A stretch of DNA of 64,000 nt, taken from the NCBI GenBank assembly GCA_964016885.1, contig OZ024742.1:207824001-207888000 (forward strand), read 5' to 3'. The notes beneath the pieces are model-generated. The model was not told the origin of the DNA, searched no databases, and saw only the letters and a program-made list of their open reading frames with translations. Below, in pieces: positions 386 to 54,033 of this stretch. Both the position numbers and the translations under genes were made by a program. Position 1 is the first letter of the stretch. Each line of letters starts with the position of its first letter. The DNA is from Eledone cirrhosa. Taxonomy: Eukaryota.

Positions 386-3300
386 AACCCGTGACCAAGA
401 AATACCGGATGGCGGCCGGCGGGGAATAGCCGTGTCTCTAGGGGAGAACGACCCCTCTAGTCTTGGTTGACACTCGTTCTAGAAGTGGTAACACGAAATG
501 ATTACCCCTTGGCGGATAAGGATAAAACGCGACAAAATAAAGTAAATGTCTAATGATGAAATCTCATACCGGATCGGCCGTCACCCGGGTAAAAAAGGGC
601 CGCGTCCCTCAGAGAGGAACCAGACTGGGGTCGAAAAATCAGCTAATGGTTCAAACCTTCCCATCACTTCGGAGCTGGAGACCTCCCATGAACGGAATAC
701 TCCTACTGTTGGCCCTCCATGCTCACCACCAAGAAATCCAAAGGAAAAGAGAGAAAAATGGTCAAGGGAAGATAATAAAGAAGTCCTTGAGGCTTTCTAC
801 ACTGCCATGTACTACCCATCAAATACATCGAATACAGAACAGACATATATCAACTGGAAAAAGAAACATCCCGAAAACAGAGGCTATATTGACAGTAACA
901 AACTAGCCAATATACGAAGAAATATTGTAAGAAAAAAGTTACTTACTGATATAGAAATTGATCAGATCAAGCTATTAGCACAAAGTCAGCGAAGGGAAAA
1001 TGAAACATGTGTCAGTGAAAACGAGGTAAACTGTAACACTTCGAATCCCAGGGTTGGGGCGGAATCACTGGCAACAGAACAAATTAAAGAAAGGATCGAA
1101 AAAGTGAAGGAAGTGCATGCTCAGGATGAAACTCCAAATGAAAATAATGAGATCGTAAATGATAAAGAAATGAATGAGAATGAACTTGCCAACTTGAAGG
1201 ATGAAATTATGATCGAATGGATGAAAATGAAAGAATCTGACATGGGGAAACGAGACACCCTCCCTAAGATCCAGAACTCCAAACAGAACCAAAAGATAAT
1301 ACACAAGACTAACATAATTCTCAAAAACATTATCATCACAAACAAACTAAACATTACTGATTTAAATCATCTCTATTATGCATCGGCTAAAGTCACCACT
1401 CACTTATGTGGAGTGAAGATGAAAAAACAAAGGAATTCCCACAAGAAATCTACTTGGCAAGAGAACATCAATCGCCAAATAAACCTTCTCCGATCTGACA
1501 TAGATAACAAACTATAAAGTAGGTGAACATGTTAAACAAACTAAACTTAGAAAATTGAAAAAAAAGTACAGTATAAAATCAACATGTGACATAGACATGC
1601 TGATAGAAATAATCAAGCAAAAAGTGTCGGCCAAAGCTGCTCGTATAAAGCGCTTTGAAAAACGATCTAGATTCTATAAGGACAATAATATGTTCAAAAA
1701 CAACCAAAGCAACTTCTACAGAAAAATTGGTAAGTCAACAATAACTGCTAAATCAATACCACCCAAGGAGGAAGTGCAAGAATTCTGGGAAAAGATCTGG
1801 GCCGAAGAAAAAGTTCATAACATACATGCCGCATGGATAGACAGACAAATGAAAGATACAGCTCAACTTGAGGAACAAATATGGGAAAATATAACAGTTG
1901 AACAGCTGCGCTTGGCTCTAAGAAAATCCAGCAAATGGATATCTCCAGGAAAGACAAAATACAAAACTTTTGGATAAATGCCTTCACAGAGTCTCATGAG
2001 CTGTTAGCCCAACTTTACAATGAAATAGTTAAGGAGCCAGAAAAGATACCACCATGGCTAGTTAACGGCATTACATTCCTGCTTCCGAAGAATGATGAGA
2101 CAAACAATCCCAAAAATTACAGACCGATAACTTGCTTGACCACAATGTATAAAATTTTAACATCAGTCCTAACTGAATACACATATGACCACCTGATAAC
2201 AAATGACCTATTTCCCATTGAGCAGAAAGGGTGTAAACGAGGCTCATATGGCTGTAAGGATCAGCTTCTGGTTAACAAAATGATACTGGAAGATTGTCAT
2301 AATAGACACAAAAATCTATCGATTGCTTGGATAGATTATAAAAAAGCATTCGATAGTTTGCCACACAGATGGATTGAAAAATGTTTAGAGATTTTCAAAA
2401 TATCCCCCGTTGTCAGGAGGTTTTTGTCATTCAGTATGAAGACATGGAAAACGACACTCCTTTTGAATAGAGAAACAAAATCACTGGAAGCTGGAGAAGT
2501 TAATATTAATTGTGGAATTTTTCAGGGTGACTCTGTATCACCGCTTTTATTCTGCATCGCACTTATACCATTAAGTAAAATGCTCAATGAAACAAAACAC
2601 GGATATAAAATCTATGACAAAACCATTAATCACCTGTTCTACATGGATGACCTGAAACTATTTGCAAAAAATGATGAACAATTGCAAGGGCTATTATCCA
2701 CTGTGGAGCAGTTCAGTGATGACATTAAAATGGAGTTTGGACTAGATAAATGCGCCAAAGCAACGTTCACCAGAGGAAAGCTGCTGAAGAGTTCAGACAT
2801 TAATCTTGATCGGGGGAACGTGATAAGAGAACTTGATCAAGAAAAAACTTACAAATATCTAGGTGTTTGTGAAGGAGATGGAATCAAGCACTCGACAATG
2901 AGGGAAAGGATAAGGAAGGAATGTTACCGCAGAGTAAGAGCAATCTTAAGAACGGAATTGAATGCAAGGAATAGGATCGATGCCATAAACACGCTTGCCA
3001 TACCAGTAGTAACCTACAGTTACAATGTCATCAACTGGTCAAGCACAGAGATCCGTAGGCTCGATACAAAAATTTGAAAATTCTTAACCATGCACATAAT
3101 GCATCACCCTAAGGCAGATATAGATAGAATATATCTCCCTAGGAAAGAAGGAGGACGTGGGTTAATCCAGTTAGACATTGCGTTGAAAACTGCAACAATT
3201 GAATTATCTATATATCTAAGGGAATCACATGATTGGATGATCAAACTCGTTTTGAACCACAAAGCATCAAATGATCATATTCCATTACAAAAGATGCACA

Positions 3301-4345
3301 AAGATACAGTAATGGACTACACATTTCAGAAGTCCCATTTACTGCTGAAATGGAAAACACAGAAAAAGCAAAGCAGGTAAAAGTAACTGCAAAGAAAGAA
3401 CTGCTACAGAAACTGGCTAAGAAATGGCAAGAAAAGCCTCTGTATGGAAAATACCCAGAGCGAGCTAACAATCCTGATGTTGACAAAACTTTAACCCATC
3501 AGTGGTTGGCATCCTCTGGACTGAAATCGGAGACTGAAGGACTGATTATATCGGCACAAGATCAGTGTCTGCCAACAAAAAATTACCAAGCCAGCATAAT
3601 AAAAAATGGATGCAGCCCATTATGCCGTGTATGCAAAAAACAACCAGAGACCATTGACCATATAATTTCAATGTGCAGTCCTATAGCTCCAACCGAATAC
3701 CTAAGCAGGCATGACAGAGCTGCACAATACATACATTGGATAATGTGTAAGCATCTTGACCTGCCCCATCAAAAGAATTGGTGGGAGCATCAACCACCTC
3801 CCATACTTGAAAAAGATCACATCTCAATCTTGTGGAACTTTAGCATCCAAACAGACCGAAAAATAGATGCAAATAGACCTGATATAATATTGAAGGACTT
3901 TAAAAATAGGGTATGCCTGCTAATTGATATGTCTGTTCCAATAGACAAGAATGTATCTATAAAAACATTTGAAAAATTGAGCAACTATAAGGACCGGGAG
4001 ATAGAAATTGGAAAAATGTGGAAATTGAGAACTAAAACAATACCAGTGGTTGTAGGCGCTCTGGGAATGATACCTAAGGGGTCTAATGATTACTTATCGC
4101 AAATCCCAGGAAACCCGCGTATAGGAGAAATACGAAAGATAGTACTAATGGGAACTGCCCATATACTAAGGAAGATTCTGTCAATAAAAGTACATCACAA
4201 GTCTAAACACTAAAGATGCATGTGTGAGTATGTATGTTCTTTCTTGAACATGGCGGACCTTGTTGTCTCTTGAGGTCACTGGTTGTGACTTGGTGATAAC
4301 TCGTATGAACATAAAGGAAGATAAATGCAACTGTAAAAATAATAA
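386..4345 (+). mobile_element. R4/Dong-clade non-LTR retrotransposon (RT + restriction-like endonuclease), near full length
   Basis: Chained ORFs 546-4213 carry RT motifs (NYRPITCL, WIDYKKAFDS, GIFQGDS, LFYMDD), a CCHC finger (CRVC..ETIDHIISMC), RHD, and PD..D..K RLE motifs. The 3' end runs into (TAA)n at ~4340, the known Dong target. Confidence 0.93.
546..4213 (+). pseudogene. Single RT-RLE ORF of the Dong-like element, broken by a few stops and frameshifts
   Basis: ORF pieces 546-1517, 1555-1977, 1935-3077, 3090-3380 and 3350-4213 join into one R4/Dong-type polyprotein. Confidence 0.9.
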
Positions 4346-6859: not shown

Positions 6860-9800
6860 GTGCTAAAATCAGCGGTGGTTATGTAACCATTCATTCACCA
6901 ATCCTCGATATGAGTGTTTAAATGTCGAACCTAAACAGTTCGAATAACGGTGTAAAGGAGACTGAACGTCATGTGAAAGACTCTCACCCAGCAAGTGCTC
7001 CCTGGATCAACAGCAGGGATCTGGTTGTCATCCAAATACTGCTTGTGCTGGAGGAAGAAGTAGGAATGGGACAAGAATCAACTGGACGAGAGAATTGAAT
7101 AGAACTATCATGAAATGTTACCTGAAGAGTAACGCCATGGAAAAGGGCTGTAGAAAACGGGTGCATAACATCTGCAACGAGATTGGTCTAATTAAATTAG
7201 ATGAACAAAAATTGGCCGGACAGGCTCGGGTAATAAGAACTAATGGATGGATAAGCAAGTTGGAACTGGAGGAACTGAGCAGAGAGATTAAGTTGGGAAT
7301 GGAGAGTGGAGTATATCAGGCAAATGAGCCAGTGGTGAAATGAAGGTGAAGAGGTTGAGAGACCTGAGGAAGCATCCGATGCAGACAATAATCTGAATGC
7401 TGAAATAAATAACATCTGGAACAAAGTTACGGCCATTGAGGAAATGAATGCTGACGGGCTAGGGCAAGATTTGGTTGAAATCCTGCTCTTAGTGGTAGAT
7501 GAAATGAACAAAGACAGTGGAAAACCTACGAATCTAAGATTTGTAGACAGGAAAAAGTTAAAAGAAACAACAGCTAAGGCAAACAAAGTCATCCCATACC
7601 TTGAGGCGAGGAACCTTCACCAATGCAACAATATCCTCAAAGCAACCGCAAATGTGCTGAGGAAATTACATGGCATAAAAACGAGAGGAAGCAACATACA
7701 AGAAAGATCAGAACCTTGGTGGAAGAAACGACTGAATGGTCAAATCAAAGAAATGAGAAAATACATTGGAAAGCTTGAGTCCTTACTGAATGGGACATTA
7801 CAAAACATAGATACTAAAGATAGATTGAAAATAAAATACAAAACTAGGGGGAAAAAAGCTAAATATTATCATAGAAGAACTGAAGCAATGCATTGTAGCA
7901 AAAATTGAAGAGATTAGGCGCTATGAGAACAGAGTTAGTCAGTATAGACAGAACCGCATGTCTGACAACACCCAGAAGATGTTGTTTAAACAACTTGAAG
8001 GGGAAGAAAGAGGCAACGATGTGATCAATGAGGCGAAAGAGACTAAGACATTCTGGAGAGGAATATGGGAGCAGGATGAACATAATAGTCAGGCAGTGTA
8101 GATTGAGACAGTTCAAAAAGAGATTAGTGAACAAGCACACCAACAACCTGATTTGAGTATCACAGTTGAAACTCTTAAAGCGCAGGCCAAAAAACTAACC
8201 AACTGGAAACCACCAGGCCCAGATGGTGTGCAGGTGTATTGGATTAAAAATATAAGATCCCTCCACCCGAAACTGACAACCATGTTCAATGACTGCTTGA
8301 TGTCCAGTGAAATATCAGAGTGGTTGACAAAAGGTACCACAGTTCTGGTAATGAAATACCGAATCAAGGGTAATGATGTTGCCAAGTATAGGCCTATCAC
8401 ATGTCTGTCCGTAATGTGGAAACTGTTAACAAGCTTTGTATCTGAGGAAATCGACCATCACCTCCACATAAACAACTTGTTACCGGACGAACAGAAGGGA
8501 TGCCGAAAGAAGACCCGTGGTACAAAAGACCAGTTACTTATTGATAAGATTGTACTGAGGAATTGCAAGAGGAGGTATACTGGTCTTGCCATGGGATGGA
8601 TAGATTACAAAACGGCATTCGACATATTACCTCATTCTTGGATAACCAAACGCCTAGAAGTCTTCAAGGTGGCAGATAACATCAGACAGTTATTGAGCAA
8701 AAGTATGAAGTTGTAGCGAAGCGACACCTGTCGTCTACTTGGGGACAGCTATGCAGAGTTACCTGCACATAGCTCTGACGTCACAAACTGATGTCACCAA
8801 AAATAATTCACTCTCCGGCGGCGATTTGCGAAGAGACCTCACGAATAATTTTGGAGCTGACTTCTTCCTATGAAGAGATGATTTCTGCCTTTTCTCTCTA
8901 GAGATGACTTCTGCCTTCTCTCCCTAGATAATGACTCCTGCCTATGAAGAGATGACTCCTGCCTTCTCACTCTCTTGCTTATACGCTCCAGTCTTGGAGT
9001 CGCGACCAAGTCACCAACTACACCATCACGACACGTGGTAAAATATTTCTAATTTGTTATTATTGACTCCTGTGATATAAAACTTTGTACAAACACGCAC
9101 CAGCCATTCTTATTCTTTTTAATATTATTATAAATAATATATACACCAATACCAGTCACCCAAAAAGTCCTGCGAAACAGAGTTAACATCAGGTGGAAAA
9201 TCCTTGGAAGGCGTGAAGATCAAGTGAGATATCTTCCGGAGAGATAGTTTGTCCCATCTGCTGTTTGTCCTTACCCTGACACCCCAGACCATTATAGGAT
9301 ATGGAGGAGAAGATTAGGAAGCTAATGACTATCTACACCATGTTCCGCAAGAGGAGTGATGTTGATAGACTGTACTTAAATAGATCTGAAGGTGGAAGAG
9401 GTATTATCAGCATGGAGGACTGTGTTCAGATGGAGAAAAACAACCTGCACAAATATGTGATTGACAGTAGGGAGCCAATGCTCAAAATTGTACTGAAGGA
9501 GAGGACAATAGACCAGGGGATGTCCAAGGAGGAAATAACAACTAGGAGGAAGAGCAACTTTCATGAAAAATCCCTTCATAGCACCTTCTTTAAGAAAACG
9601 GAATTTAGAGATCCACAGATATGGAACTGGGTAAAAAGAGGAGACCTTAAAAAAGCTACAGAAGGAATGCCAGTGGCTGCGCAAGAGAAATCCCTCAGAA
9701 CGAAGTGGGTGAAACGCCATATTGACAAGGAGGAGGTTAGCTCACTGTGTAGGATATGTGGAGAAAAAGATAGGAGACTGTGGCTAACATTGTATCCGAG

Positions 9801-10350
9801 TGTAAACACCTAGCCCAGACACACTATTATGGCTGGAGACATGATGTGATAGGCAGGGTGATCCACTGGCATCTTTGCAAAGTAAACAATTTACCACATT
9901 CTGAGAAGTGGTATGAGCATAAGTCAGAGTCGGTGATAGAAAACGATAAGGTGAAGCTGCTATGGGATTTTAGGATACAAAACACAATAAGCCTGGCTTG
10001 GTGGTTTTGGACAAGTAAAACAGATTGTGCTGATTGTAGATGTAGCCTGCTAATTTGACACGAGATTGCAAGAAAAGGAGAGGAAGAAAATTAACCGATA
10101 CCAAGACTTAAAGTGGGAGGTAAAAAGGATTTGGAAATGCCTTGAAGTCAGTTGTCATAGGCGAACTAGGTACTATCTCAAAGAGTTCCCAAGGATGGTT
10201 AAATAATGTTAGTCCAGCCCCGCTTTTTGGAACACTTCAAAAGGCATGCTTGCTGGGAACAGCAAGAACCCTCCGATAGGTCCTGAATATCTGAGGCTTT
10301 TCAACAAACTTTCTAGTTAAATAACATCAATGACTGAGACTCGAAGAACA
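6860..10350 (+). mobile_element. Second R4/Dong-clade element, degenerate, with the RT core deleted and a nested insertion
   Basis: Peptides EPWWKKRL, NWKPPGPDGVQVYWIK, KYRPITCLSVMWKLL, WIDYKTAFD, LYLNRSEGGRG, CRIC and RHDVIGRVIHW. The YMDD region is missing (jump near 9290). Ends in (TAA)n at 10350-10400. Confidence 0.9.
8712..9179. mobile_element. ~470 bp insertion in the Dong RT, probable solo LTR
   Basis: Interrupts SKSMKL|TELTSGG. Ends TGTAGCG...CGAAACA with flanks AAGT/GAGT, and contains short GAGATGACTYCTGCCT repeats. Confidence 0.55.
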
Positions 10351-11348: not shown

Positions 11349-12687
11349 TTAGTATAACGGAAGTTGCTGCTGCGAGTAGCAGTTTCGCAATCGATTTTTT
11401 GGAGGCTGCCACAAAGCACTGAATGAGATGAAATTAATAAATGTATGCCCAGAATAATAACATATATATGCACATATATAGAAATGACATATGTAGGTCT
11501 AGAACTGTTTCATTCGTATGAAATCTTGAGAAACGTCATCCTGACGATTTCTACAAATGAAACAGTTCAAAAAGTCATTACTATATATAATAAAGATACC
11601 TATATTCTACCAATGAACTGAGTAACTTTGTAACTATTAATACCCCCAACACAATTCGGGTATCCACATTATATATATTATATAAATATTAGTGTGTGTA
11701 TGGATGTACGTGAGAGAGAGAGAGAGAGGGAGAGAGGGAAAGTGACTGAATGCATATATGTAAGAATATGAGAATGACATACATTTCAGGAAGACAGCCA
11801 ACATATGGTAATAATATTCTAATTTTTGAGCACCTCAATGAGGCACTTTGATTTAATGTTTCAAAATAATACATGTCAAATTTAATCCTCGCTTGAACAT
11901 TTACAGATACACACGCATGTCTGGACACACATATATACACACATTTATATACGCATACACACGCACGCATAAGTGTATTTCATATATATATATACTATAA
12001 ATTATGTCCATAGAATCATTTGATAAGATATATACACCATTTCCTCTCCCAATTAGCATAATCAACCACAAAAAAACAATTAAACCAGGCTATAAGATTA
12101 AAAGGCACCTATAAAGAAATAATAGATAAATAAACGACACCCATCTATTCGCGATCAACAGCTATGGAATATTTACCCAGCATTTCAATAGCACGTGGCT
12201 ATCGATTAAGTATATCGTCAACCATACACAATTAGGTATAAAATTAAAGTTAGAAGAAAAAATGTATATAAACATACCAGGATTACGTTTCTACCCCTTA
12301 CGGTTTCATTCGCTTTTGGAAATATGCGATCAAGGATAAATTCTCGAGCTTCGAAATCATCAGGAAACAAACTAAGAACTGTGATGTGGCAGTGGTCAAG
12401 TCAGAAAGAATGTGATTAGTGCCTTACGGCGAGTGGGCTGGTTGCTAGAAAGCGCAGCCTAATATTGCCTAAATTTCATCTCAACCTTATGGGAGATTAT
12501 CAAATATAAAAATTTACATATACACAAACTAGACAAAGTATATATATATTGGAAAATGAGTGAGATCATTGGTACAGTTAGGTATATTTGAAAAAAAGGA
12601 AAAGAATGACTTCACTTGTAGTGTTAACAAATCTTGATTTAATTTTATAATATAATATTATGAGTTGGTAGATCTCAGAATATTGTA

Positions 12688-21868: not shown

Positions 21869-24052
21869 TATATGATTACATTTCTTAATTTAATCTGAGA
21901 ATGTTAGTGATTTTGCTTAAAAACTTTTCAGGTTATCGTGAAGTAAAATGCGTTGTTAGCTGCATGCGACTAATGCAGTTATTGTCAAGATCGGACTATT
22001 GATTTTATTGGTTTAAGTGTAGAAAATTGCAGAATGGAAGTTCAATTGATTTGTAATAATGTTAAAGATTATTTGGCAGAATAATAAACATACAGGCTTT
22101 AGGGCTCTAGGGATGACGGCTAATCGCTCGTGAGAAAAGTGAGTTTTACCCAAAGGATTATTTTTCTGCTTTCATTTAAGCATATATTTATCCTCCCTTC
22201 TGCAGTTTTTCATCTTTTGAACTCTAAGTATGCTTTACAGATTCTGAAGTTTACAGATATAGCGGCCATGTGTAGCTTATTAATTAAGGAGCGTGTGTTT
22301 TAAGGGTTAATATATATTTTTTAGCACCAATAATAATAGATATGAAGCTATATGTGTATGTATAAATGTAGTATGTTGGTTGTGTGTTTGATTGTATTTA
22401 CGAGTGTATACATGTCTTAAATTCGTCCATGAATAATCATACAAACTCCTCACAAACATCAAAGTTTTGAAATAAGTGATTGAGAGAGGAAGGAAGCAGT
22501 AAGGGAGTCAAGGTGAGGATGTGTAGTGGGGGTATGATGGAAACAAGGAAATGGGTGGAGCATGGATATGCGGGTCGTTGTTTGTTAGATGGATTAAGCG
22601 GTTGACATTTGTTGACTTAAGAGAACAGCTGATGTCTACTTTTGACATTTGACACACAGATCACAAGTCAAACAATTCCTACACGCTCTGCCTAACAGAC
22701 ATAGACACAATCATAAACCGTCTCCACGTTTATTCCTTTTGAGATACGTTTATTTGTTTGTGTGTTTGATTGTGCATGTGTTCGTATGTGGGTGGGTATC
22801 TGTATGCGACTGTTTGTTTGGCGGGGTGTATGTGTGTGTACAGCCATTTATGTGTGTATCTGACATTATACGTGTGTATTTGGATGGAAGTAAATAGTGA
22901 TCCGAATTTGAATTGTAGTAAGGCAATACTTTTTTTAAATGAAATAATTTCACGAAATTGTTGTCGATTTCTGTAGCTGCAGAACTCGAGCCCTTTTATG
23001 GTACGAATATCAGATACAACTTTTGAAGACTCTACATAGATGAGGACCAATTATAACGCTCCAACATGCAATGATGTGCCCAGTGTGATAAATGCACATT
23101 TTGATACTAGCGGACAAAGTGGATTCGGTCAAATTGTAACAGTTGAACTGCTGCGCTTTTTTGTGCGTTGCACCTCCAGCATTGTGTTTGAGGTCAGTTA
23201 AATAACACTCGTTAATTTGTTTGTTTTCAGCGTTTAGTTTCGTTTCCGCGGGATATATTTATTTTATTTTGAAGGCTATTGTGCGACGTACTATTTGAGT
23301 AATATGGGATCATTGACACACCAAGACTACATGCTGGTTTAAATAAAAATTGTGTTTCCATCATAAATGCAATCAATTGTCCAAGAACCTGGTGACCAAA
23401 CTATTAGTATTTTTTACACAGGCAGCAAAAGAGTTTACGTCTTTAATTGCTAACTTCTATTTGTGTTGTCATATCCTTTTGTTTATCAATATTTCACACA
23501 TCCAATATACATTTGTTTAGCAATGAACAATATCCAGTGTAACTACATACAAAGAGGCTTAACAATTTCTTTGGCATTTTCATTGGCTTCATTGTGATTT
23601 TTTCGTGCTAAATATATGCGATCATCTTTAGTCGTGTTCCAAAATTCTATACAGAATTGTGAAATCCAATCTAGTCTTTTTATGCTCCTGTCTGTCACTC
23701 AAAATATTTGCACCCTGGACTACTAGGTTAACTTTGCCTTTCATCATTACGGGTAATTGGTGGCCTAGTGCCAACAGTAGATACAATTTTTAAATTCATA
23801 GCCTTCCTTCTAAAATTTGTAAACATTTTTTATGTCGTTTTTATTCTCGACATTCGTACTTTGATAGAACGACATTCATTTTCAGAAATTCTATACATTT
23901 TCCATCAGTTTTATTGCGTGTACTGAATGCACGATATAGCGTAGTCCAGGGTGCTTTACCTTTACTGTTTTAGATTGGTTTCCTGTGTTCCTGTTCAATT
24001 GACAATACTCTACGTGAAATGTATGCTATGCCAAGTAGCGGTATTTTCCTTG

Positions 24053-24095
<43 letters not shown>

Positions 24096-24560
24096 TTTCA
24101 ACAATGTCATTATTCCGTGTCATAATTCTCGATTACCATTGGTTCATAGGTTTCAAACGACTCCGCCCACCTCAACGACGCCAAACTTAGATTAATATGC
24201 GTAATGCCAATGAGAGAGTGAGAGGGGAGAGTCAGAAAAAGAGAGGCAAAGTGAACGCTGTAACTATTACCATGTGTGCGTGTGCATGTACGTGCGTGCG
24301 TGTGTATGTGCGTGCAGCGTTTCACAGAAAGTAAAAGCAATTCGACTTTATCAAACAGTGAACTACAGCGGCGACGGCGTGCAGCCAGGAATGAAGAAAA
24401 ACGGGCCGAACAGCGCCATTGGAACGCCAAACTTCGGAGGCGAAAAAGTGCCGCAATGAATGAAGTGGAGCTCGCTGAAAAACGCCAACGAAACACTGGA
24501 GACAAGCAGTGCTGCGATGGTTGAAGACAAATTGGCTGAGGATCAATTATATATTAATTA

Positions 24561-24919
24561 TCTATATCTATATCTACCTATAATATAAACGATTGGAACT
24601 TTCATCATCCTTTTAAGAAACGTGGAACAACCACGTCTATGCAATGATACACGTTTTACAGTCAGGCAGAAGATGACCATCTCCTAGAGAACACTATTCT
24701 AGGTGGGAGCACATAGAATTGTTCATATTCTATGCACAAACAACGGTACAACGAAGAATCTGGTATATCTGGAAGATTTTTTTACTGTTTTCTGTATCAC
24801 ACAGACACCACGGGCTCGCCTCATACTGTAACCAGACAAACATCCGATACAGTCATTTTCTATTTTACCTGTTTCCTCTTATCATCTGTTTACCCGGGCG
24901 AAGCTGGGTACCTCAGCTA

Positions 24920-24920
<1 letters not shown>
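24561..24920 (+). mobile_element. Non-autonomous Helitron
   Basis: 5' A|TCTATATCTATA...; 3' hairpin ACCCGGGCGAAGCTGGGT followed by CTAG|T. Confidence 0.75.
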
Positions 24921-25012
<92 letters not shown>

Positions 25013-25090
25013 AAAGAATGACACGAAATTTCATTTCTCACTCTTAGTACGGCAACCATCGTCGCCTTTTTGTTCAACACTGACATAGGA

Positions 25091-25134
25091 AAGATGTACT
25101 AGTTTCAAGCTTTATTAGCTATTGTCAGCATCGT
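25091..25134 (-). ncRNA. Minimal hammerhead copy 1 (mutated core CTGACAA)
   Basis: Reverse complement: ACGATG CTGACAA TAGCTAATAAAGCTT GAA ACTAGT A CATCTT. Confidence 0.6.
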
Positions 25135-25682
25135 ATACCTTCCTGCCAGACGATTGAACGTCTGAAAGTATATACTTTCACTATGCATATTAACGGCTGA
25201 GCAGCCTAATTTGCATATCGAGTGAGTTAGTCGGCCGGGCAGACCGAAAACGATAAGTGGAATAGAATGAAACGAAATTTCATTTCTCACTCTTAGTACG
25301 GCTGATGCTTAAATGTAAGTATGTATGTATACTTACATACATATATGTATACAGACGTACGGTAGTATGTATATATATACATACATGCACACATTATAAT
25401 AAAAGTTCGGTAAACCCATACGTACATGTATATAGGTGTACGTGTATGTATATATACACATACTACCGTACGTCTGTATACATATATGTATGTACGTATA
25501 CATACATACTTACATTTAAGTATCAGCCGTACTAAGAGTGAGAAATGAAATTTCGTTTCATTCTTTTCCATCTATCGTTTTTGGTGCGCCCGGCCTACTA
25601 ACTCACTCGATATGCAAATTAGGCTCCTCAGCATAGGGAAAGTATACACTTTCAGAGGTTCAATCATCTGGCAAGAAGGTAT

Positions 25683-25725
25683 ACGATGCTGACGGTAGCT
25701 AATAATCTTGAAACTAGTACATCGT
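25683..25725 (+). ncRNA. Minimal hammerhead copy 2 (core CTGACGG)
   Basis: ACGATG CTGACGG TAGCTAATAATCTT GAA ACTAGT A CATCGT; perfect 6-bp stem I. Confidence 0.65.
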
Positions 25726-26165
25726 TCCTGTGTCAGTGTTGAACAAAAAGGCGACGATGTTTGCCTGAACACTGTACGGTGTAATTCGGGCTGTTTGTTT
25801 ACAGACAAACCAAACATTATAATAAATGTTCGGTTAACCCATACGTACATATATATATGTGTGCATATATGTATATATATACATACTAGCATACGTCTGT
25901 ATACATATATGTATGTATGTATACATACATACTTACATCTATATATATATATATAAATATTAGTATGTATACGTACATACATGTATGTATACAGATATTA
26001 GCGAGTATATATGCATACATACACACATATATATATATATATATATATGTACGTATGTGTTTAGCGAACATATATTATAATGCTCGGTTTCTTTGTAAAC
26101 AACCAGCCCGAATTAGTAGCAGTACGGCAATCATCGTTGCACTTTTGTTCAACACTGACTAAGGA

Positions 26166-26208
26166 ACAATTAACTAGTTTCTAGCGTATTAGCTGTCATC
26201 AGCAACGA
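26166..26208 (-). ncRNA. Minimal hammerhead copy 3 (core intact, stem I eroded)
   Basis: Reverse complement: TCGTTG CTGATGA CAGCTAATACGCTA GAA ACTAGT T AATTGT. Confidence 0.65.
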
Positions 26209-26458
26209 ATACATTCCTGTCAGTCGATTGAACATTTGAAAATATATACTTTCCTAATGCATATTAACGGCTGAGCAGCCTAATTTGCATATCGACTGAG
26301 TTAGTCGGCCGGGTGTACCGAAAACGTTAAATGGAGAAAATGAAATTTCATTTCTCACAAAAAGACAACGATAGTTGCCGTACAGCAATTTAAGTATGTA
26401 TACGTACATACATGTATGTATACAGACGTACACTAATATGTATATACATACATACATG

Positions 26459-26493
<35 letters not shown>

Positions 26494-26617
26494 GTACTTA
26501 TGGGTTTACCGAACTTATATTATAATGCTCGGTTTGTTTGTAAATAAACAGCCCGAATTAGTAGCCGTACAGTGTTCGGCAACCATCTTTGCCCTTTTGT
26601 TCAACACTGAATAAGGA

Positions 26618-26660
26618 ACGATGAACTAATTTCTAGCTTATTAGCTGTCATCAGCATCGT
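26618..26660 (-). ncRNA. Minimal hammerhead copy 4 (best preserved)
   Basis: Reverse complement: ACGATG CTGATGA CAGCTAATAAGCTA GAA ATTAGT T CATCGT. Core intact, 6-bp stem I, AGC/GCT stem II. Confidence 0.8.
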
Positions 26661-26977
26661 ATACCTTCCTTATGCATATTAACGGCTGAGCAGCCTAGTT
26701 TGCATATCGGTAAACCGAAAAAATGAAATTCATTTCTCATTCTTAGTACGGCTCATACTTAAATATAAGTATTTATACGTACATACATATATGTATACAG
26801 ACGTACACTAGTATGTACATACATACATACATGCACACATATATATATATATATGTACGTATGGGTTTACCGAACATTTATTATAATGCTCGGTTTGTTT
26901 GTAAACAAACAGCCCAATTAGTAGCCGTACAGTGTTCGGCAACCATCGTTGCCCTTTTGTTCAACACTGACTAAGAA

Positions 26978-27020
26978 ACGATGAACTAGTTTCTAGCTTA
27001 TTAGCTCTCATCAGCAACCT
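26978..27020 (-). ncRNA. Minimal hammerhead copy 5
   Basis: Reverse complement: AGGTTG CTGATGA GAGCTAATAAGCTA GAA ACTAGT T CATCGT. Confidence 0.72.
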
Positions 27021-27117
27021 ATACCTTCTTGCCAGTCGTATACCTTCCTGCTCAGCCGTTAATATGCATAAGGAAAGTATATACTTTCAAACGCTCAATC
27101 GACTGACAGGAAGGTAT

Positions 27118-27160
27118 ACGATGCTGATGACAGCTAATAAGCTAAAAACTTGTTTATCGT
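27118..27160 (+). ncRNA. Minimal hammerhead copy 6 (GAAA mutated to AAAA)
   Basis: ACGATG CTGATGA CAGCTAATAAGCTA AAA ACTTGT T TATCGT. Confidence 0.6.
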
Positions 27161-27432
27161 TCCTTAGTCATTGTTGAACAAAAGGGCAACGATGGTTGCC
27201 GAACACACTGTATGGCTACTAATTCGGGCTGTTTGTTTACAAACAGACCGAGCATTATAATAAATGTTCGGTAAACCCTTACGTACATATATATATATAT
27301 ATGTGTGTGTGTGTGCATGTATGTATGTATATACATACTAGCGTACGTCTGTATATATTTATGTATGTACGTGTACATACTTATATTTAAGTATCAGCCG
27401 TACTAAGAGTGAGAAATGAAAATTCATTTTTT

Positions 27433-27508
<76 letters not shown>

Positions 27509-27552
27509 CGTAAAATAAGAAAATTATAAAATTAACTTACTTACTAAAATAT

Positions 27553-27639
27553 CACTTCCAACTAATTAGTTTCTGGAATGGAGTAAATATATTTTCCGAA
27601 CAATAATATACAGAGAAGCATTCCGTCGTCAGGAAAGTC
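27553..27639 (-). ncRNA. Type I hammerhead ribozyme
   Basis: Reverse complement: ACTTTC CTGACGA C-GGAATG...CATTCC-A GAA ACTAATTAGT T|GGAAGT; all three stems form. Confidence 0.82.
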
Positions 27640-28077
27640 TATTCTCATGTAAGTTTCCAGGCAAAGCGAGGACACTGGAAACTTATTAAAAAATAATTCA
27701 GTGGATAGAAAATAGCGAAGCGTGGACTGAATTCCAAGCCATTGAGAAAATCACTGCCTCTACGTCTGTGGCAAATTCAAAAAGAATCGAACACGTGACA
27801 TCGAGGTCAATCAGTGGAAAGTGGTTTGCTAATAAGACAGCGGCCTGCCTACAACCGTAGCAGCAGTCATGGCCAATATTGCTCGACAAATAATTTGGAG
27901 ATAATAATAAAGAATTCATATCTAGTAACATATATATACATACAGATGCATATCAATGCTAGCAAATATATAGGTTTTGTCTTAATAACAGTGTGGTTCA
28001 ATGCATGGGGTTGCAGAACAATAATATAAGAGACGTAAAATAAGAAAATTATAAAATTAACTTACTTACTAAAATAT

Positions 28078-28162
28078 CACTTCCAACTAATTAGTTTCTA
28101 GAATGGAGTAAATATATTTTCCGAAGAATAATATTGAGAAGCATTCCGTCGTCAGGAAAGTC
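28078..28162 (-). ncRNA. Type I hammerhead ribozyme (second copy)
   Basis: Same motif as 27553-27639, with stem II GGAATG/CATTCT. Confidence 0.8.
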
Positions 28163-28324
28163 TATTCTCATGTAAGTTTCCAGGCAAAGCGAGGACACTG
28201 GAAACTTATTAAAAAATCTGCAACCCCATGCATTGAACCACACTGTTATTAAGACAAAACCTATATATTTGCTAGCATTGATATGCATCTGTATGTATAT
28301 ATATGTTACGAGATATGAATTCTT

Positions 28325-28404
<80 letters not shown>

Positions 28405-28409
<5 letters not shown>

Positions 28410-29030
28410 ATATTAAGGATACTATTTATGGTTATGTATATATTAAAACTTTTTATAGTTATGTATATTTTAAACCCTAAACAGTGAAGGTCAGTAATGT
28501 ATTACCTTATTACTAGTAAGATAAATAGCTCAATGTAATAACATCAGTTGTTCTACAGAGCAGTTATATAGAATTCACAAGAATCAAAGCTATGGTCAAA
28601 GCATTTATTCACTTACAATTGTTTCATCCAAACCTAGGCTTGGTGTCTTCGGAGCATTTTTCAATGTTTGTACACATAATTGACCTCCTTTCCAACGCAA
28701 GAGACATAAAGATCCATATATATATATTGATGTACAGTGGAGTGACATATATTATACTATACGATTTTTGTACAGCAATTAAAATTAAAAATAATTCAAA
28801 ATAAAAATCAAAATAAAAATCAAAATCAAAATTAAAATACATTCGGCAGATAACACAGATAATGCAAGAGGATAGTTCGATAGTCAGGTCTAGTAGGTTG
28901 TGTATGCGTTAGTTACACATGGAGCATGCAAGTGTGTCTCATTTATATACGATTATTGTGTGGCAGGGTATTACATGTAATGCAAGCACTTTAAGCGGGT
29001 AAGCAAGATTATTATGGGGGTTGTAGTGGT
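28405..29030 (-). mobile_element. Non-coding element of the 13150-13915 family with a variant hammerhead (28610-28656)
   Basis: Reverse complement: TGCT CCGAAGA CA CCAAGCC TA GGTTTGG AT GAA ACAATTGT A AGTG. Bordered by (TA)n. Confidence 0.6.
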
Positions 29031-29092
29031 AAGGTATTTTTTGTATAGATCAAAAAATTATGTGTGCAGAAAAATAAAAATAAAAAGAAGAA

Positions 29093-29200
<108 letters not shown>

Positions 29201-29371
29201 CATTGAAAAAATCGTTTTCTAATGGGAAAGAAAACAAATATAAATGCAAAGGGATTGACGAATTATTCATTCTGATGATTCTAATGTTTTGTTCATCTAA
29301 TTAATCAAGTAATAATTGTGCGTTCATTTATTAAAATGTAATATAAATAACCGTTTTGGTCTGTGTATTAT

Positions 29372-29496
<125 letters not shown>

Positions 29497-30559
29497 CGGC
29501 GTATATATTCTAGAATATTTGTTAATAATCTATAACGTCTCTTCGTCATCTTTCGCATGTCCCCTATTATTATAGAGATAGTTTTTGTTTTTAATCTGAC
29601 ATGGGACTATATGGAACTTATATCCATTTTGCTAAACGTTCGTTTTATTTCTGCATTTACCATATTTTCATCCCCAATATATTTGTTTTGCGTAGACATT
29701 CTGCACTGGAATATTTTATATTGTTGTATAAAGACACGAAGCAAATAAAAAAAGAAACTGTTTCCTCTTAACAGTTGGATAAACTCCCTGTATCAGAATA
29801 ACATTTTAAAACATACCATTCCAGGCAAATGTTTTTGACCAAATCCGGTGTTTTCGAAGTTTGAAATCACGAATCAACAAGTCAACAGTTGAGGTTCCAT
29901 ATAGTCCCATGTCAATTGACCTTGTGGCTAGTGAGAATGGTCCTTGCAATGCATTTGTTAAAGAAAAGCGGCAATCAAGGAAAATGCGTTACTAACTCAC
30001 ACAGGCATGGTTCTGCTACAGAAAGATAAATGGTTATTTAATTTGTGGAAATCTCACCTCATACGTTGCGCATAATACAATATGGAGCCTTTTGGTGAAA
30101 CTAAAATGAGTAGAGCAGTGCTATGTAAAAAATCAAGAATGATTCATTCAGAAACAATGACACAATATCAAAGACGATGGAAGGTAAATATTCTGTGCAT
30201 TAACAAATTTAGAGGGGCTTTTCATCATAAAAAAACAACAGTATGAATGTAGATCCAGCGGATAGATAGAGTGATAACTCTTAAATCTGGCGAGATAGAT
30301 TGAACTCCATTGATAGTTTTCTGTGGCAAAGAAATAAGATGAATTAATGCGACAAACACCTACTCATAATCTAGCACACATATGAGATATGAGAGTAATA
30401 TATGAGATATGATAATAAACATAAAATAAGATGACTGACTCTTGTCGCATTACAAATTTCATAGCGGAATATGGGTAGATGGCTAATGCTGACGTGTTCT
30501 TTGGCGATATATAAATAGATAGGGTCCCTATAGAAATAAAAGTCCTGATGATACCCAGT

Positions 30560-31652
30560 TTGGATGATTTGACCTACTAGCTTTGCGTAAACATTCCAGA
30601 ATTGTTCTCCAATCTCATCAAAGCACTCTACAGTAACTGGCAGCAGAACGGGTGTATTACCAGTTCTGTGAACCGGGATAAAGAAATTTGAGAACAAGAG
30701 AGCTACACTAGACAGCGTCAGGCCCATAACTCAGCTAATCACAGAGTTTAAGACTTTGGCCAAAGTGTTAGTGACGAGGTTGGCGCGTGTCGTCGAGGAT
30801 TAGGCAGGGGAGACGGAAACTTGAGTAATTCCGACCAGGTCCATACACAGCAACCTCTAACCCATGCAATACATCATAGAGAGGGTAGGGTGTAAACCTA
30901 GCTTTGGTGGGGCTCTGATCTATTTATATCATCGAAAGCTTTAGATAGGGTCGAGGATTAATACCTGGAGGCTGTCCTCAAGGCAGCTGGCTTTGGCCTT
31001 GTTTTCACAAGCTGGATCACTGTAATGCACAGTGACATCTGCACGGTGATCAAACTTAAAAGTCGTCTTTCGGAACCATTTTACATCTACCGATCGGTCG
31101 GTCAAGGATGCCCTCTCTCTCCCCTTCTGTACGAATTGACTCCCGAATCTTTACTGCGGAAGCTGGAGCTGTTGCAGGGCATCCCGTTTGAACCGGGAAG
31201 CGGAAACGTTGTTTCGGCATATGTGGACGACATCCCCGTGATGGTATCGAACAGCTCAGAAATCGGGGACGTCAGCACCTCCTTGGCGAAATATGACAGG
31301 TTGCCGGTAAAGTCGGTGCATTTGCAGCTCGGTACCTGTTGAACGGGCACTGGACGGACAATACTGGTAAAGTTGCGGGAGGTTTGATTCGAACCAGACT
31401 TCCTGTTGGATAAGAATTGGGACGAACTTACAAACAGGGTAGCCACTCTGACTCAGAAATGGGCCGAAAGGAAATTGTCCCTGAGTCGCACTTGGGCGGT
31501 TCACCCTCATATATTGAGGAATTTATTTTGTTGCGTTTTTATTGTTAATTGTTTTTGTTAATTTCTTTACTCAATTTTATTGTAAACGACCACTGTCACT
31601 GTCTTTATATTGTCCTCTATATGTCGGTCCTTGTGCTCTATAAATGAAACAA
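30560..31652 (+). mobile_element. Degenerate, internally deleted Tx1-type LINE (RT region joined to the 3' end)
   Basis: RSVGQGCPLSPLLY and SAYVDD; 3' end GTCCTTGTGCTCTATAAATGAAAC. Confidence 0.85.
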
Positions 31653-31654
31653 TT

Positions 31655-31858
31655 CAGTGTCGGTAGAGCGTCGGACATCATGCTTCGTGGGAGAAAGTTA
31701 CTCCCATTTACAGTCTAATTTCAAACCTCGCCAATGTTAGTTAGCTTTGCCTTTCATCCTAACGGCCTAAAGTACCAGTAAGCACTGGAATCGATTTAAT
31801 CGACTTTCCCCTTCCCTTCAAATTGTTTTCCTTGTGCCTAAATTAGAAACAATTATTA
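31655..31858 (+). mobile_element. tRNA-derived SINE directly after the Tx1 3' end
   Basis: CAGTGTCGGTAGAGCGTCGGAC...CTTTGCCTTTCATCC...CCTTGTGCCTAAATTAGAAAC. Confidence 0.8.
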
Positions 31859-32466
31859 CTACACAATGAAAGACCTCAGTAAAATAATACTTTCCTTAAA
31901 ATACGCGCAGTACCTAGCAAGATTGATTTTGTATGCTCGATCTTCTATTGCATATTGAAAATTTAGCAGTTATTTGAATTAAACTGAGAAATCAGAAGTA
32001 AATTGGACTGTATTTGATTTTATATTAAAAAGCGTTAATGAGGAGCAATGGGCGATGTCAGCATACAACGACACTCAGAGTGATCGATTAGCTGCTAGAA
32101 ATAGCAGTCACGTCTCATTCAACACACATCATCATATCTTTACCAAGGCATCGCTTGTTGGAAGGGCTCCGACCATATAGCCACTCGAATGTATGTCAGT
32201 GGACTATGTACAATTGTTGAAGGAAATTTCTATAGAATTTAAATGATATGAATAATATGAAATATTTATATTTATCTTATGAATAATATATAATTTGAGG
32301 CTATGGAAGGTTGAAGTGAAAAGTTTTTTTATAATTAAATCTAGCAATATTTTCCAACAAAAACTGAAATTGTAGTTGTCATTTCAATGATACACAGAGA
32401 ATCATGCACAAAAATACACACACGCTCAAATGTATATATATATATAAATATATACATATACACTCT

Positions 32467-32500
<34 letters not shown>

Positions 32501-32561
32501 AATTATAGTTGTTTATAGTTGTTTATAGTATATACATAACTATAAATAGTATCATCATTAT

Positions 32562-32600
<39 letters not shown>

Positions 32601-32728
32601 AATATCCACGGTTAGTTGTGGGGTCTAGTCTGCATGAGAACTCAATGTAATCCATATTTTGGAAATGTTATAGGATAAAATAAATCCCGGAAAACAATAA
32701 AACAACAAAAGGAAAACAGAGTCATGAT

Positions 32729-33705
32729 ATAAGTTTAAACAATGAAATAACAATTCAAGTTATTAGGAATATACTTCACTGCTTTACGGTCGTTTCTAGG
32801 TGATCATAATTCATCGTACGCATATTTAGTTATTGATCTATATAAGGTTAGTAACAAAATATCAAATAAGGAATATATTTACCTACGTGTATATCGTCAG
32901 CCGTTGTCAAATGCAATGACAATTTTATTCAAAATCAATAGTAAATTGAGTTCTATGACCTTATTTGGAGGTAACTGAAGAACAACTGAATCAAATGGTG
33001 TTTTGCCATATGATGTTAAGACGAAATACAATTCACTTTAGTTAAGGTCGTGACCTGTTGAAAGGAATGGTTGAATCGTGTTAAAAATAGAATTACTATA
33101 AATAATCTATGAAGAAAAGGGATTGTTGTATTGATAGTGGAATGTAGATGGTGGTGTGAATGTTTAAAAAGGGATGTAAAAGTTATATGTTGAGTTGTGT
33201 TGTATGGAGATTTGAGGTGAATATAAATAAAGAAATATAAAACATACGGAAATAACTAGGATAAATATAGATACGTAAAGTAATGTTCATAACTGGGAAG
33301 GATAGTATATTAAAAGATGAAAATTATAATAAGATAATAAAATACAATAATATAATAATATAATATAATTGTTTCTACTTTAGGCACAAGGCCAGCAAAT
33401 ACCAGTGCATTACTGGTACTTTATTTTATCGACCCATAAGGATGAAAGGCAAAGTCAACCTCGGCGGGATTTGAACTCAGATCGTAAAGGGACGTAACTA
33501 TGCTGGATAATAATAATATAATATAATGTAATATAATATAATGCATTATGGTACAATGTATATAGTATAGTATAGCGTATGATGTATCATAAAATATAAA
33601 ATAGTAAATATATTCAAGTGGGTCTATGTATAAGTAATCAATCCCAGATAAATGCATCTTGACATTTAGCCAAAATGCATAATTTTCTTAGATCACAAAA
33701 GTACA
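32729..33705. repeat. Left arm of a ~1 kb inverted repeat (contains a SINE at 33368-33505, minus strand)
   Basis: Reverse complement of 36022-37020 with scattered substitutions. Confidence 0.9.
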
Positions 33706-33952
33706 TATCTCTAATATATAGATAGAGGTATAATTACATATATGCTCCATTAGAAACATACATACCCATACATAGATATATACATACACATATACATACA
33801 TACACATATACATACATACACGCACACATACATACATATATAAATATATATACATACATATATATACATATATATAGACATACATACATGTACATACACA
33901 TACACACACACACACATACACACACGCATACACACACACACACACACATATA

Positions 33953-34029
<77 letters not shown>

Positions 34030-50910: not shown

Positions 50911-53900
50911 TTTTCTTTATTAACCACAAGGGTTTACATAAAGTAGACATTAAGGACAGTGCAGGACAATACAGGACGGTACAAATGGGCATTTCTGCGT
51001 GTAAAAAAACAGAGGTTGAAATAAAATAACAAAGAAAAATTCCCCAATAGGGGGGAGACTTCCGAGGGACATTTGTGGGGAAAGCCCATTAAAAGACCAC
51101 AGTGGCCCTGACCACCAGAGCAAGTGCCCTCTCCCAGTTTTCCACATTTAATTTACAGACACATACTCAGAGAAGGCCCATTCATTCGGGCCATACTTGC
51201 TTCTCTCACCCATCTTTCAACAAAATGCTGGGAAGAGAGCACTTCCCTCTCTACCCTGATTTCCTTTTCAAATGAAATTTGAATAAGTTAATCAGGGCAT
51301 CACCGAAGAGGTAAGTGCTCGTCTTCATCACTTTCAAACGTGTCCACCATACTATCTCTTTCGCCATGGCCACCAGACAGATAAAAACTGCCTGCCCTTC
51401 CCGGCTAAAGGAAGGGGGCGGCGCAATCCTCTCGATGGACTCAGCTGATAGCTGGATCCGTCCTACACGTGACAGCAGGTGTTCGACATAAACCCACAAG
51501 TCAGCAATGCTCGGACACTGGACGAGTGCGTGCAGGACGGTTTCGTCGCCGTGCGCGCATCTCGGACATTCCCGGCTGACAGCACCTCCATGCCTGTAGA
51601 GTTTATCCCGAACTGGCAAAGCTCCTCGGTAGCACTGCCAGGCCAGGGATTTCTGGAAGTTGTCCATAGGCCCCGGCCCGAAAGTCCTTCCGAAGAGATT
51701 GGCTAGTTGATTTTCGTCGACGCCTAGAGTTTCTCCAAGTACGTCGTCGCTCTTCCCCTCCACTAATCCCCTATAGAACGCTAAGGTGGAGTTTTCACCG
51801 ATCACATTGCCCGATTGGTCGAGGGCTGTGAGCGCCTGAAGACATTCCAGTCTCCAAGCGCTCCCTCTCGGTCTTCGCTTGACCCAGGACTGCAGCTCCG
51901 TCAAGGAGACGAGCTGGGGAAAAACGTGTCTAGCAAACGGCGACCACACCTGATTACCGTCGAGGAAGAGGTGGAGATGTCGTAGCCTGAGCGCGTGTCT
52001 GCGCATCATCAGCCACGGCATGCCCAGCCCTCCACGTAGCGGGTGTTGACAGTAGATGGACCGCCTGACCATCGGAGCGCGTCCCTTCCACAAGAAGCGA
52101 AAGAGCAAACGCTCCAGCGCAGTCAGGCGGGGCTTAGGACAAGGTACGACGGTCAGGCGGTAGTAGATGACGGACGCGATGTACGCGTTAGCCACCTCCG
52201 CTCGACCTTTCAGTGATAGCTTCCACTCGGCCCATTTCTGGGTGAGAGAAGCCACCCTGCTCTTCACCTCGTCCCAGTTTTTGTCCGTCTGGAGGTCTGG
52301 ACCGAACCAGACCCCTAGCAATTTAACCGGTCCGTCCGTCCAGCGGCCGACGACGCTGTTGGACGGCATGGACCTGCCTCTCCAGGTGCCGAGCTGCAGG
52401 CCCACTGACTTTCCTGGTTGATCATTGCTCCTGTCACCGCTTCGTATTCTTTTAGTGTAGTGCCGATCGCCTCGATGTGTTTGGCGTTCGACACCACTAC
52501 GGTGACATCGTCGGCATATGCTGACACGGATCTTCCGCATCCTAGTTCGCGCGGGATCCCTCTCAACGTCTCCAGCTTGTGCAGTAATGGCTCGAGAGTC
52601 AATACGTACAATAGGGACGAGAGGGGACATCCTTGGCGGACCGAGCGCATGATGTTGAACGGTTCCGAAAGGTGACCGTTCACTCTCACTACAGAGCAGA
52701 TGTTGCTGTGCATGGCAGCGATCCAGCCTCTGAAGACGGGCCCAAAGCCAGCCGCTCTCAGGACTGCCTCTAGGTAACGATGGTCGACCCTATCGAAGGC
52801 TTTCGACTGATCTAAATTGATCAAAGACCAACCCGTGCCAGGTTCCCTAGCTACCCTCTCTACGATGTATCGCATGAGGTGGAGGTTGTCGTGGATGGAT
52901 CTGTCGGGAATGGCGCATGTCTGTGCCTCTCCCACCAGACCACCAACGACAAGCGCCAACCTCTTTGCTAGCACCTTGGCCAACATCTTGAACTCTGTGT
53001 TTAGCAGAGTTATGGGCCTAAAATGATCTATGTTATCCCCCTTGTTCGGATCCTTTCTCACCGCTCCTCGGCTCACAGAGCTGGGAATTCTCCCGTTCTG
53101 TTGCCAGTTGCAGTAGACGTCCGCCAAGAGGCCTCCGAACAAGTTTGGCATTTGTACGTAAAGTTCATAGGGCAGACCATCCAAACCAGGCGATTTACCC
53201 CTTGTGCAGCGAGTCATTGCCTCCCATACTTCAGCGGCTGTTATCGGCTTTTCGCAAAACTCCGCCTCAGTGGCTGAGAGCCGCGGCAGTCCGTCGGGGT
53301 AGTCACTAAAGTCCATCCCTCGATCCGGCCCGCCGCTTCCCCCGTACATCTGAGCGAAGTGTCGCTGAAAAGCTTCACACATTTTCCCGGGATCGAGTAG
53401 CATGCGCCCGTCGTGGTCCACCAAGGACCGGATCGTGGCTTTGTTGCCACGACGCGCCTCCGCCACTCGGGCCCATTGAACGGCTTTCGTCCCCTCGTGT
53501 CTGAGAGCACGCACCCTAGCTCTTACAACGCAGCCTTCATGCTTTGCATTGAAGAATTGGTGAAGGGCCAATTTCGCCACAAGTACGTCGGTCGCGATGC
53601 CGTTGCTAAGCGCCTCGTCTAATTTTCTAACTAGTTCTCCCTCTGCTCTATTTTTCTCTATTGCTAAAGCCTTACTAAACCTAATGGACTCTATTATAAT
53701 CGTATTTTTCATAGCAAACCACCATTTGTTGTTGACGATGGCCCCCGTCAACGCCCGCTTAACTAGTTCGCTAATCCGGTCCCTGTAGGCCTTGCGCGCT
53801 GTTAATGACGCGTTTAGCTTCCAGTAGCCGGGTCACTGTCTGTGAAGTCTATCTAAGTAAACCTCACAGATCACGAATTTGTGGTCCGTGTAGCTGACTA

Positions 53901-54033
53901 TCTTGAATTGTGGATAGCCTATGCTAGACCTTTCTATTTCCCTACAAAATACTATATCTAGATATGATCTGGATGACCCTATGCGATTTGTCCAAGTCCA
54001 CATTGCAACATTCGGGAAATCCAATCGGTACCT
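50909..54033 (-). mobile_element. Young 5'-truncated Tx1/L1-type LINE
   Basis: ORFs 52315-53751 (KSPGLDGLPYELY, FRPITLLN, LDQSKAFDRVDH, SVRQGCPLS, SAYADD) and 51251-52630 (zf-RVT), with one main frameshift. APE C-terminal YTDHKFV near 53880. Confidence 0.93.

Follow-up and report, generated by a model that had tools for sequence, protein, structure and literature searches.

The window analysed here, a stretch of 64,000 nucleotides from Eledone cirrhosa (contig OZ024742.1), contains at positions 27499-28330 an insertion bounded on both sides by TA tracts (Table 1), inside which a target-site duplication cannot be told apart. The insertion comprises direct repeats (27499-27694 and 28024-28217; 196 nt, 96.9% identical, with four substitutions and a 2-nt indel) and an inverted pair (27904-28017 against 28217-28330; 114 nt, 99% identical). 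Each direct repeat carries a type I hammerhead motif on the minus strand, and the two predicted cuts, placed after U17, are spaced 525 nt apart. An initial sequence-only reading had recognised the flanking (TA)n, this spacing, and the near identity of the direct repeats, all of which are borne out. It had also described the hammerheads as delimiting a 525-nt monomer; they do not delimit the insertion, since the element extends 61 nt beyond the lower cut and 133 nt ahead of the upper one. The repeat unit is numbered 1-525 from window position 28023 down to 27499.

Table 1. Features of the insertion and its flanks, in window positions; cleavage sites are predicted.
Feature	Position	Strand	Remarks
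Arm A, 719 nt, 1.37 units	27499..28217	-	a partial unit, truncated 5', and a complete one; terminates in (TA)n at fixed end A (27499)
Arm B, 114 nt, inverted second arm	28217..28330	+	tail (unit positions 7-120); terminates in (TA)n at fixed end B (28330)
One full 525-nt repeat unit, end A to end A	27499..28023	-	
Predicted cut-to-cut monomer, 525 nt, 35% GC	27560..28084	-	putative cleavage product
Upstream type I hammerhead motif	28079..28161	-	cut predicted at 28085/28084; core-proximal pair of stem II is G-U (28100)
Downstream type I hammerhead motif	27554..27638	-	predicted cut 27560/27559
Internal tail, unit positions 1-120	27904..28023	-	bounded by internal ends A (28024) and B (27904)
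Conserved CACGTG and CAAT-like motifs	27792..27814		from sequence and 13-unit alignment
Hypervariable 3-base spot, ribozyme loop II	27611..27613 (28134-28136 in other copy)	-	this subfamily; not reproduced in sister subfamily
Left (TA)n target tract	27435..27502		next to where a different repeat with a hammerhead ends
Right (TA)n target tract	28329..28400		

The surroundings of the insertion are rich in related motifs. The TA tract that hosts it lies at the end of a cluster (25006-27434) in which copies of a second repeat family with hammerheads are nested and partly inverted; five core-like motifs, several of them degenerate, can be distinguished there, and a relative is arranged in tandem at another locus (L111), with a spacing of ~500 nt. 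A third, solitary type I hammerhead-like motif, in which stem I measures 6 bp and the stem II region is long, is found on the minus strand at 12286-12369, and broken reverse-transcriptase frames that resemble, as judged by eye, those of non-LTR retrotransposons occur at 546-4213, 7339-9813, and 51251-54542. Elsewhere in the genome, the loci L101-L120 and L181-L200 contain many further distinct hammerhead-like motifs, some in tandem, which suggest several more retrozyme families. Within the element itself, a GTAAG(T) motif resembling a splice donor is located shortly past each cut on the minus strand (27538-27547 and 28063-28072). It is conserved to a large extent between subfamilies and forms part of a hairpin that immediately precedes end A. 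The CACGTG and CAAT-like motifs may act as an internal promoter.

The 525-nt unit is a real, non-coding repeat, and the window locus is one ordinary copy among thousands. Its best matches in the 3.0-Gb genome are dispersed, 97-100% identical, and built on the same unit, often with the 525-to-1 junction. Exact matches genome-wide amount to 483 for the 21-nt ribozyme start of the window's subfamily, 3,679 for the 24-nt end-A motif, and 12,089 for the 3' half of the ribozyme (19 nt), which marks the superfamily; these three motifs are progressively more conserved, and reversed-pattern controls gave 0 matches. Moreover, 13 units, drawn from subfamilies as little as ~70% identical, can be aligned over their full length, and indels occur all along the alignment. 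Pfam returned no match for the two spacer frames tested, three PLE (Penelope-like element) proteins compared with the element gave no significant match (best E 0.025), and the ORF with RT and GIY-YIG endonuclease that characterizes an autonomous EN+ PLE is absent. With a type I hammerhead in each unit, a short length of 525 nt, a low GC content (35%), and no coding capacity, the element is a non-LTR retrozyme. Other copies, which the sequence-only reading had proposed to look for, are abundant, and its view of the insertion as young is supported, because so many dispersed copies are 97-100% identical to it.

The difference between the two window repeats is a poor clock for this age, since a hot spot of three bases in loop II makes part of it. 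In the window's subfamily, this spot differs in 49/256 within-insertion comparisons, compared with 1.5% elsewhere. The hot spot is absent in the sister subfamily (3/123), against a prediction made in advance, and its use as a mark of the RNA 5' end was not supported (p 0.15-0.21).

On the minus strand, both window repeats contain stem I, the CUGACGA core, stem II, GAAA, and a palindromic stem III, with the core residues C3 U4 G5 A6 N7 G8 A9, G12 A13 A14, and A15.1-U16.1, a U as H17, and GUU as cut triplet. Both ribozymes are atypical, in this GUU triplet as well as in an unpaired C and A that border stem II and a loop II of 36-38 nt, and they lack the canonical G10.1-C11.1 pair stacked directly on the core; the unpaired C and A between core and stem II recur in 73/73 distinct ribozymes listed, from a search that required the C but left the A free. 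The motif is more than a chance resemblance because stem II covaries across subfamilies: 5/15 pairs change on both sides, a score reached by 0/500 shuffles, which is to be read as constraint and not as a probability, since the 15 aligned ribozymes are related. Slid controls pair 26-45%, compared with 92% for the true stem alignment, one stem II position shows four different pair types across the 15 ribozymes, and RNAalifold recovers the same hammerhead fold unaided.

The motif, its core, and stem II covariation thus uphold the two hammerheads of the sequence-only reading, whereas their description as intact does not hold. Rfam detected no hammerhead at E<=10 over the element and none over window positions 22000-34000, and the hammerhead is not the lowest-energy fold, as its constrained folds are less stable than the local minima by ~4 kcal/mol (-10.6 vs -14.8 and -6.7 vs -10.4 kcal/mol) and forcing both hammerheads in the 719-nt arm costs ~18 kcal/mol. 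The stem II pairing GGAATG/CATTCC described there is found in the downstream copy; in the upstream copy the 3' strand is CAUUCU, giving a core-proximal G-U pair. Of 160 ribozyme occurrences, a figure in which overlapping loci recur and 73 sequences are distinct, the window's copy alone shows this pair. The upstream ribozyme is likely weakened, and the window locus is probably not the best copy for testing. The predicted 525-nt cut-to-cut monomer folds better than shuffled sequences (z -3.6), and two consecutive complete hammerheads below -5 kcal/mol, the threshold applied in 10.64898/2026.07.22.740005, are present, though not as minimum-energy folds. The palindromic stem III is computed at +1.5 as a hairpin and -9.0 as a self-duplex, values that suit the dimeric mode outlined in PMC4209133.

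The manner of insertion emerges from 58 position-ordered sites on contig 1, with a total of 94 arms. The 5' ends of these arms are scattered, while 48/94 arms end at position 525 (end A), 37/94 at 116-123 (end B), and 9/94 elsewhere, so that the two fixed 3' ends lie ~120 nt apart; 82 of the 85 classified ends run into TA. The arms are combined in a near-strict manner, as the 32 head-to-head pairs comprise 25 A+B, one B+B, no A+A, and six unclassified (p 2.7e-7 for the 26 classified). At 66 sites of a sister subfamily, for which three predictions had been written down beforehand, 24 pairs are A+B and none is A+A or B+B, with 14/38 unclassified, many of which end at position 125, where the tail meets TC. 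Taking both samples, A+B is found in 49/50 classified head-to-head insertions. In addition, the arms of one site are a median of 1.9% apart (n=19, one at 11.9%), compared with 8.1% between sites, and both arms of a site come from one lineage. A candidate chimera at the unit boundary (L122/L215) was discarded as an indel artefact (4 mismatches in 225).

Because end B and the A+B pairing recur at other sites, the inverted piece of the window is arm B, the second arm of the insertion. The inverted copy of 110 bp noted at the outset is thus present, and it is not a cap. A fixed 3' end, variable 5' truncation, a partial tandem (pLTR), and an inverted 5'-truncated arm with a tail on one end only are all found, as in PLE-mobilised sequences, and the A+B rule is the Penelope pLTR-plus-tail signature. 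This pattern, together with the lack of Pfam and PLE-protein matches and the indels among the 13 units, agrees with the earlier proposal of a non-coding and non-autonomous element, whose Penelope-type nature can be held with high confidence. Priming at two sites is its likely basis.

Several other origins can be weighed against this one. An ordinary coding Penelope, truncated at its 5' end and with the spacer as the 3' end of its ORF or as UTR, would show pLTR-like direct repeats and an inverted copy, which are typical of truncated PLEs (PMC8557442). However, the A-to-start junction recurs in many copies at a 520-560-nt period, no coding similarity was found, and no family arm was seen running into an ORF of its own, the only fusion being one to an unrelated Neptune end (L280); this origin is extremely improbable, and the spacer as a Penelope coding end, named as a counter-case in the sequence-only reading, is refuted, while an autonomous element sharing only the ends may exist. 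A satellite-like DNA repeat, multiplied at TA tracts by slippage or recombination and retaining the hammerhead as a passive relic, would account for the local tandem expansion at one locus (L201), but dispersed copies have 3' ends that are fixed and 5' ends that vary, their head-to-head junctions are unique, and they follow the A+B rule; together with the compensatory changes in stem II, this makes such an origin very improbable. Equally improbable is a discrete linear 525-nt RNA cut out by the two ribozymes as the mobile unit, with the inverted piece as an accidental cap. The cuts are exactly one unit apart, as such an RNA demands, and a few arms start exactly at the cut (L029, and L278 and L281 from the sister subfamily). 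Yet end A lies 61 nt and end B 181 nt from the 5' end of the cut monomer, which would give no more than ~61 nt from A and 181 nt from B, and 45/48 A arms and 31/37 B arms (76/85 in all) are longer; the inverted arm, moreover, ends where over a third of all arms do. The cut site is crossed 99 times in 85 arms and, since most arms run through it, the cut linear monomer cannot be the usual template and, as the main route, it is largely refuted. What is copied must run uninterrupted across the cut: an uncut multimer or transcript, or a religated circle.

The choice between these two templates is finer. The same two-site priming could act on an uncut linear read-through transcript, with the hammerhead serving mainly in protein binding or regulation and multimers arising from tandem source loci or template jumps. 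The cut-site crossings agree with such a template, as does the behaviour of the window's subfamily, in which no excess of 5' ends at the cut site was detected (9/32 vs 25% expected, p 0.41; a tally by hand in which 3/35 rows, two duplicates and one internal deletion, were dropped). In the young sample of 58 sites, 4/85 5' ends fall within 5 nt of the cut (p 0.25) and a further count gave 9/83 (p 0.047, uncorrected), so that no significant excess emerged. Long local arrays, such as that at L201, could act as sources, and arm A of the window starts at unit position 330, near the start of 8/84 sister arms (2.4 expected; a post hoc count in an AT-rich tract), which could be a transcription start. 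In addition, for PAc, the one PLE tested in vitro, cleavage is reported as dispensable for insertion and uncut RNA as the main substrate (PMC11167929), and eight of nine Xenopus retrozyme dimers are described as showing no in vitro cleavage (10.64898/2026.07.22.740005).

Against an uncut transcript, linear templates shorten at the 5' end only, yet 23/85 arms exceed one unit (with the tail counted for B arms), and 12/58 sites have an arm with at least two ribozymes. One arm (L273) carries five ribozymes and was likely inserted as a multimer, because its rounds differ from each other by ~2-3%. The catalytic core and the cut triplet are kept across subfamilies down to ~70% identity, although there is no ORF to maintain. 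Moreover, 21/43 junctions in sister subfamilies fall 0-2 nt from the cut, vs 25% expected (p 0.0007; a hand tally in which 9/52 rows were dropped, namely five duplicates, one internal deletion, and three small duplications). This excess lies mostly 1-2 nt before the cut, and added bases or pausing at stem III could explain it equally well. The preset test in the sister subfamily found 6/84 5' ends at the cut against 2.4 expected (p 0.03), with four of the six in an AT-rich tract where ends are poorly defined. Animal retrozymes are reported to produce circles (PMC7229834), and self-cleavage and a circular RNA of the 525-nt unit are predicted here on sequence grounds. The circle is marginally favoured as the usual template; the uncut transcript is a credible reading that the balance of evidence places behind it. 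For the window itself, the four differences and the indel between its repeats mean that a fresh circle copy would need later or copying errors. The L201 array mentioned above (L201:2324-7305) lies within a normal insertion with two arms and has nine units of 521 nt that hardly differ, whereas its short arms carry private changes; it was rejected as evidence of rolling-circle copying, as expansion after insertion or an assembly effect would produce it.

The enzyme that moves these elements was sought among Penelope-like proteins. A GIY-YIG search yielded 10,596 candidates, of which 150 were scored, and 30 of these fall into six families, most of them with a cysteine linker typical of Neptune. 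For Neptune-type reverse transcriptases, 150/150 scored matches are 97-100% identical, many in 775-aa frames that carry RT and GIY-YIG domains, and one Neptune family has two TA-flanked ends of its own, ~35 nt apart. A young Neptune-type PLE family with many 775-aa frames resides in TA tracts (L109:3060-7900 and others), and scans found no hammerhead in its pLTR. An autonomous PLE with the same pLTR, which the sequence-only reading had suggested seeking, did not appear: a profile search of 70 loci, 69 of them chosen for GIY-YIG, gave none with the same ribozyme or ends, and searching two partly overlapping sets of family loci (130 and 126) with PLE proteins gave none sharing the ends, the partner search having covered a small part of the 10,596 candidates. 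The loose ends of contigs yielded only sister-family variants, and one loose-end motif with 3,898 matches belongs to a sister non-coding family and not to an autonomous element. Family copies near Neptune ORFs (L068/L120, L109, L198, L200) are separate insertions, as judged by orientation or an intervening TA tract.

Sixteen loci contain PLE coding fragments, two of which (L280 and L228) were read as sequence and the other 14 judged from coordinates. At L280:1515-4101 (the same site as L326), a sister-family arm continues in line into a Neptune 3' UTR and pLTR, with no TA in between. The fusion lies ~7 nt short of the Neptune pLTR end and is the only case among 30 copies, itself the query; a template switch is possible, as is an insertion with deletion, and both would give it. 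At L228:1379-2340, a family arm stands head to head with an arm of the hammerhead family that neighbours the insertion in the window, and its other end adjoins PLE coding sequence, not TA. Neptune shares the TA target and the two-end pattern with the element, and no homologous ends were found; as the mover, it is the preferred candidate, with a fair margin of doubt.

The insertion is best read as a young retrozyme copy placed into (TA)n in trans by a Penelope-like RT-endonuclease, probably Neptune, from an RNA continuous across the cut site, most likely a religated circle, a reading to which we assign a probability of roughly 0.55. A transcript spanning two ribozymes would be cut, perhaps only with the help of a protein or as a dimer held by the palindromic stem III, and the cut RNA would then be ligated. 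After the enzyme had broken both strands of a TA tract, sites A and B would each be primed by one of the DNA ends, and the resulting cDNAs would be joined head to head, here as arm A of 719 nt and arm B of 114 nt. A more specific version is doubtful but worth stating: a dimeric Neptune enzyme may copy the ribozyme-made circle by priming one broken DNA end at each of the two sites, 120 nt apart, so that insertions would record cleavage, rolling-circle copying, and exchanges of template between the retrozyme's RNA and that of Neptune (L280), without sequence homology to the mover. If this were true, DNA insertions would archive in vivo hammerhead cleavage, in the form of the cut-site starts of the sister subfamilies, together with multimers of equal age.

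The class to which this family belongs and its link to PLEs are already published, the link having been proposed from co-occurrence and pLTR trees. As in the non-LTR retrozymes of PMC7229834 and 10.64898/2026.07.22.740005, the unit is low in GC and non-coding, has one type I hammerhead with a palindromic helix III, is present in thousands of copies, and coexists with PLEs. Its length of 525 nt exceeds the 150-450 bp given for metazoan non-LTR retrozymes (Cervera and de la Pena 2020, PMC7229834) but falls within the range of 51-972 bp given more recently (Li, Clavereau, Pollet 2026, 10.64898/2026.07.22.740005). Unlike those retrozymes, the copies described here, known from sequence alone, are mostly dispersed two-armed insertions and not arrays; the text of 10.64898/2026.07.22.740005 includes neither the word "tail" nor an inverted-arm analysis.

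The likeness to PLEs is closer in the architecture of the insertions. Neptune and other PLEs are described as having a tail at one end, inverted copies, and a microsatellite bias (PMC8557442), and in the Penelope PAc of the anole the tail is the stretch between two RT start sites, both strands being cut and extended in vitro (PMC11167929). The partial-tandem pLTRs, inverted 5'-truncated arm, one-end tail, and microsatellite targeting of EN+ PLEs (Penelope/Poseidon: PAc, PMC11167929, and Adineta, PMC3846280; Neptune, PMC8557442) are all shared, as is the presence in the pLTR of a hammerhead that has one additional base following A9 (PMC4209133). In contrast to these elements, there is no ORF, the longer arm may be A or B, the searches above gave no homologous autonomous element, and the tail measures ~120 nt instead of the 30-40 nt of published PLEs (PMC8557442, PMC3846280, PMC11167929). 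Non-autonomous Chlamys elements such as MRC1 make pLTRs and head-to-tail multimers as well, but these generally share their 3' ends with autonomous families, and canonical hammerheads are missing from most Chlamys, whereas here the hammerhead is present and no such sharing was found (PMC8557442). Among openly readable main texts, the A+B rule on a non-coding retrozyme was not found in print; PLE or retrozyme lists in supplements may already name the family. To the published link, this family adds a direct insertion signature, namely a PLE tail and inverted arm under a near-strict rule of one tailed and one tail-less arm. Since its thousands of short, young copies assemble well, they make the origin of the tandem and inverted structures of PLEs countable, and they bear on whether hammerhead cleavage and circles are real intermediates.
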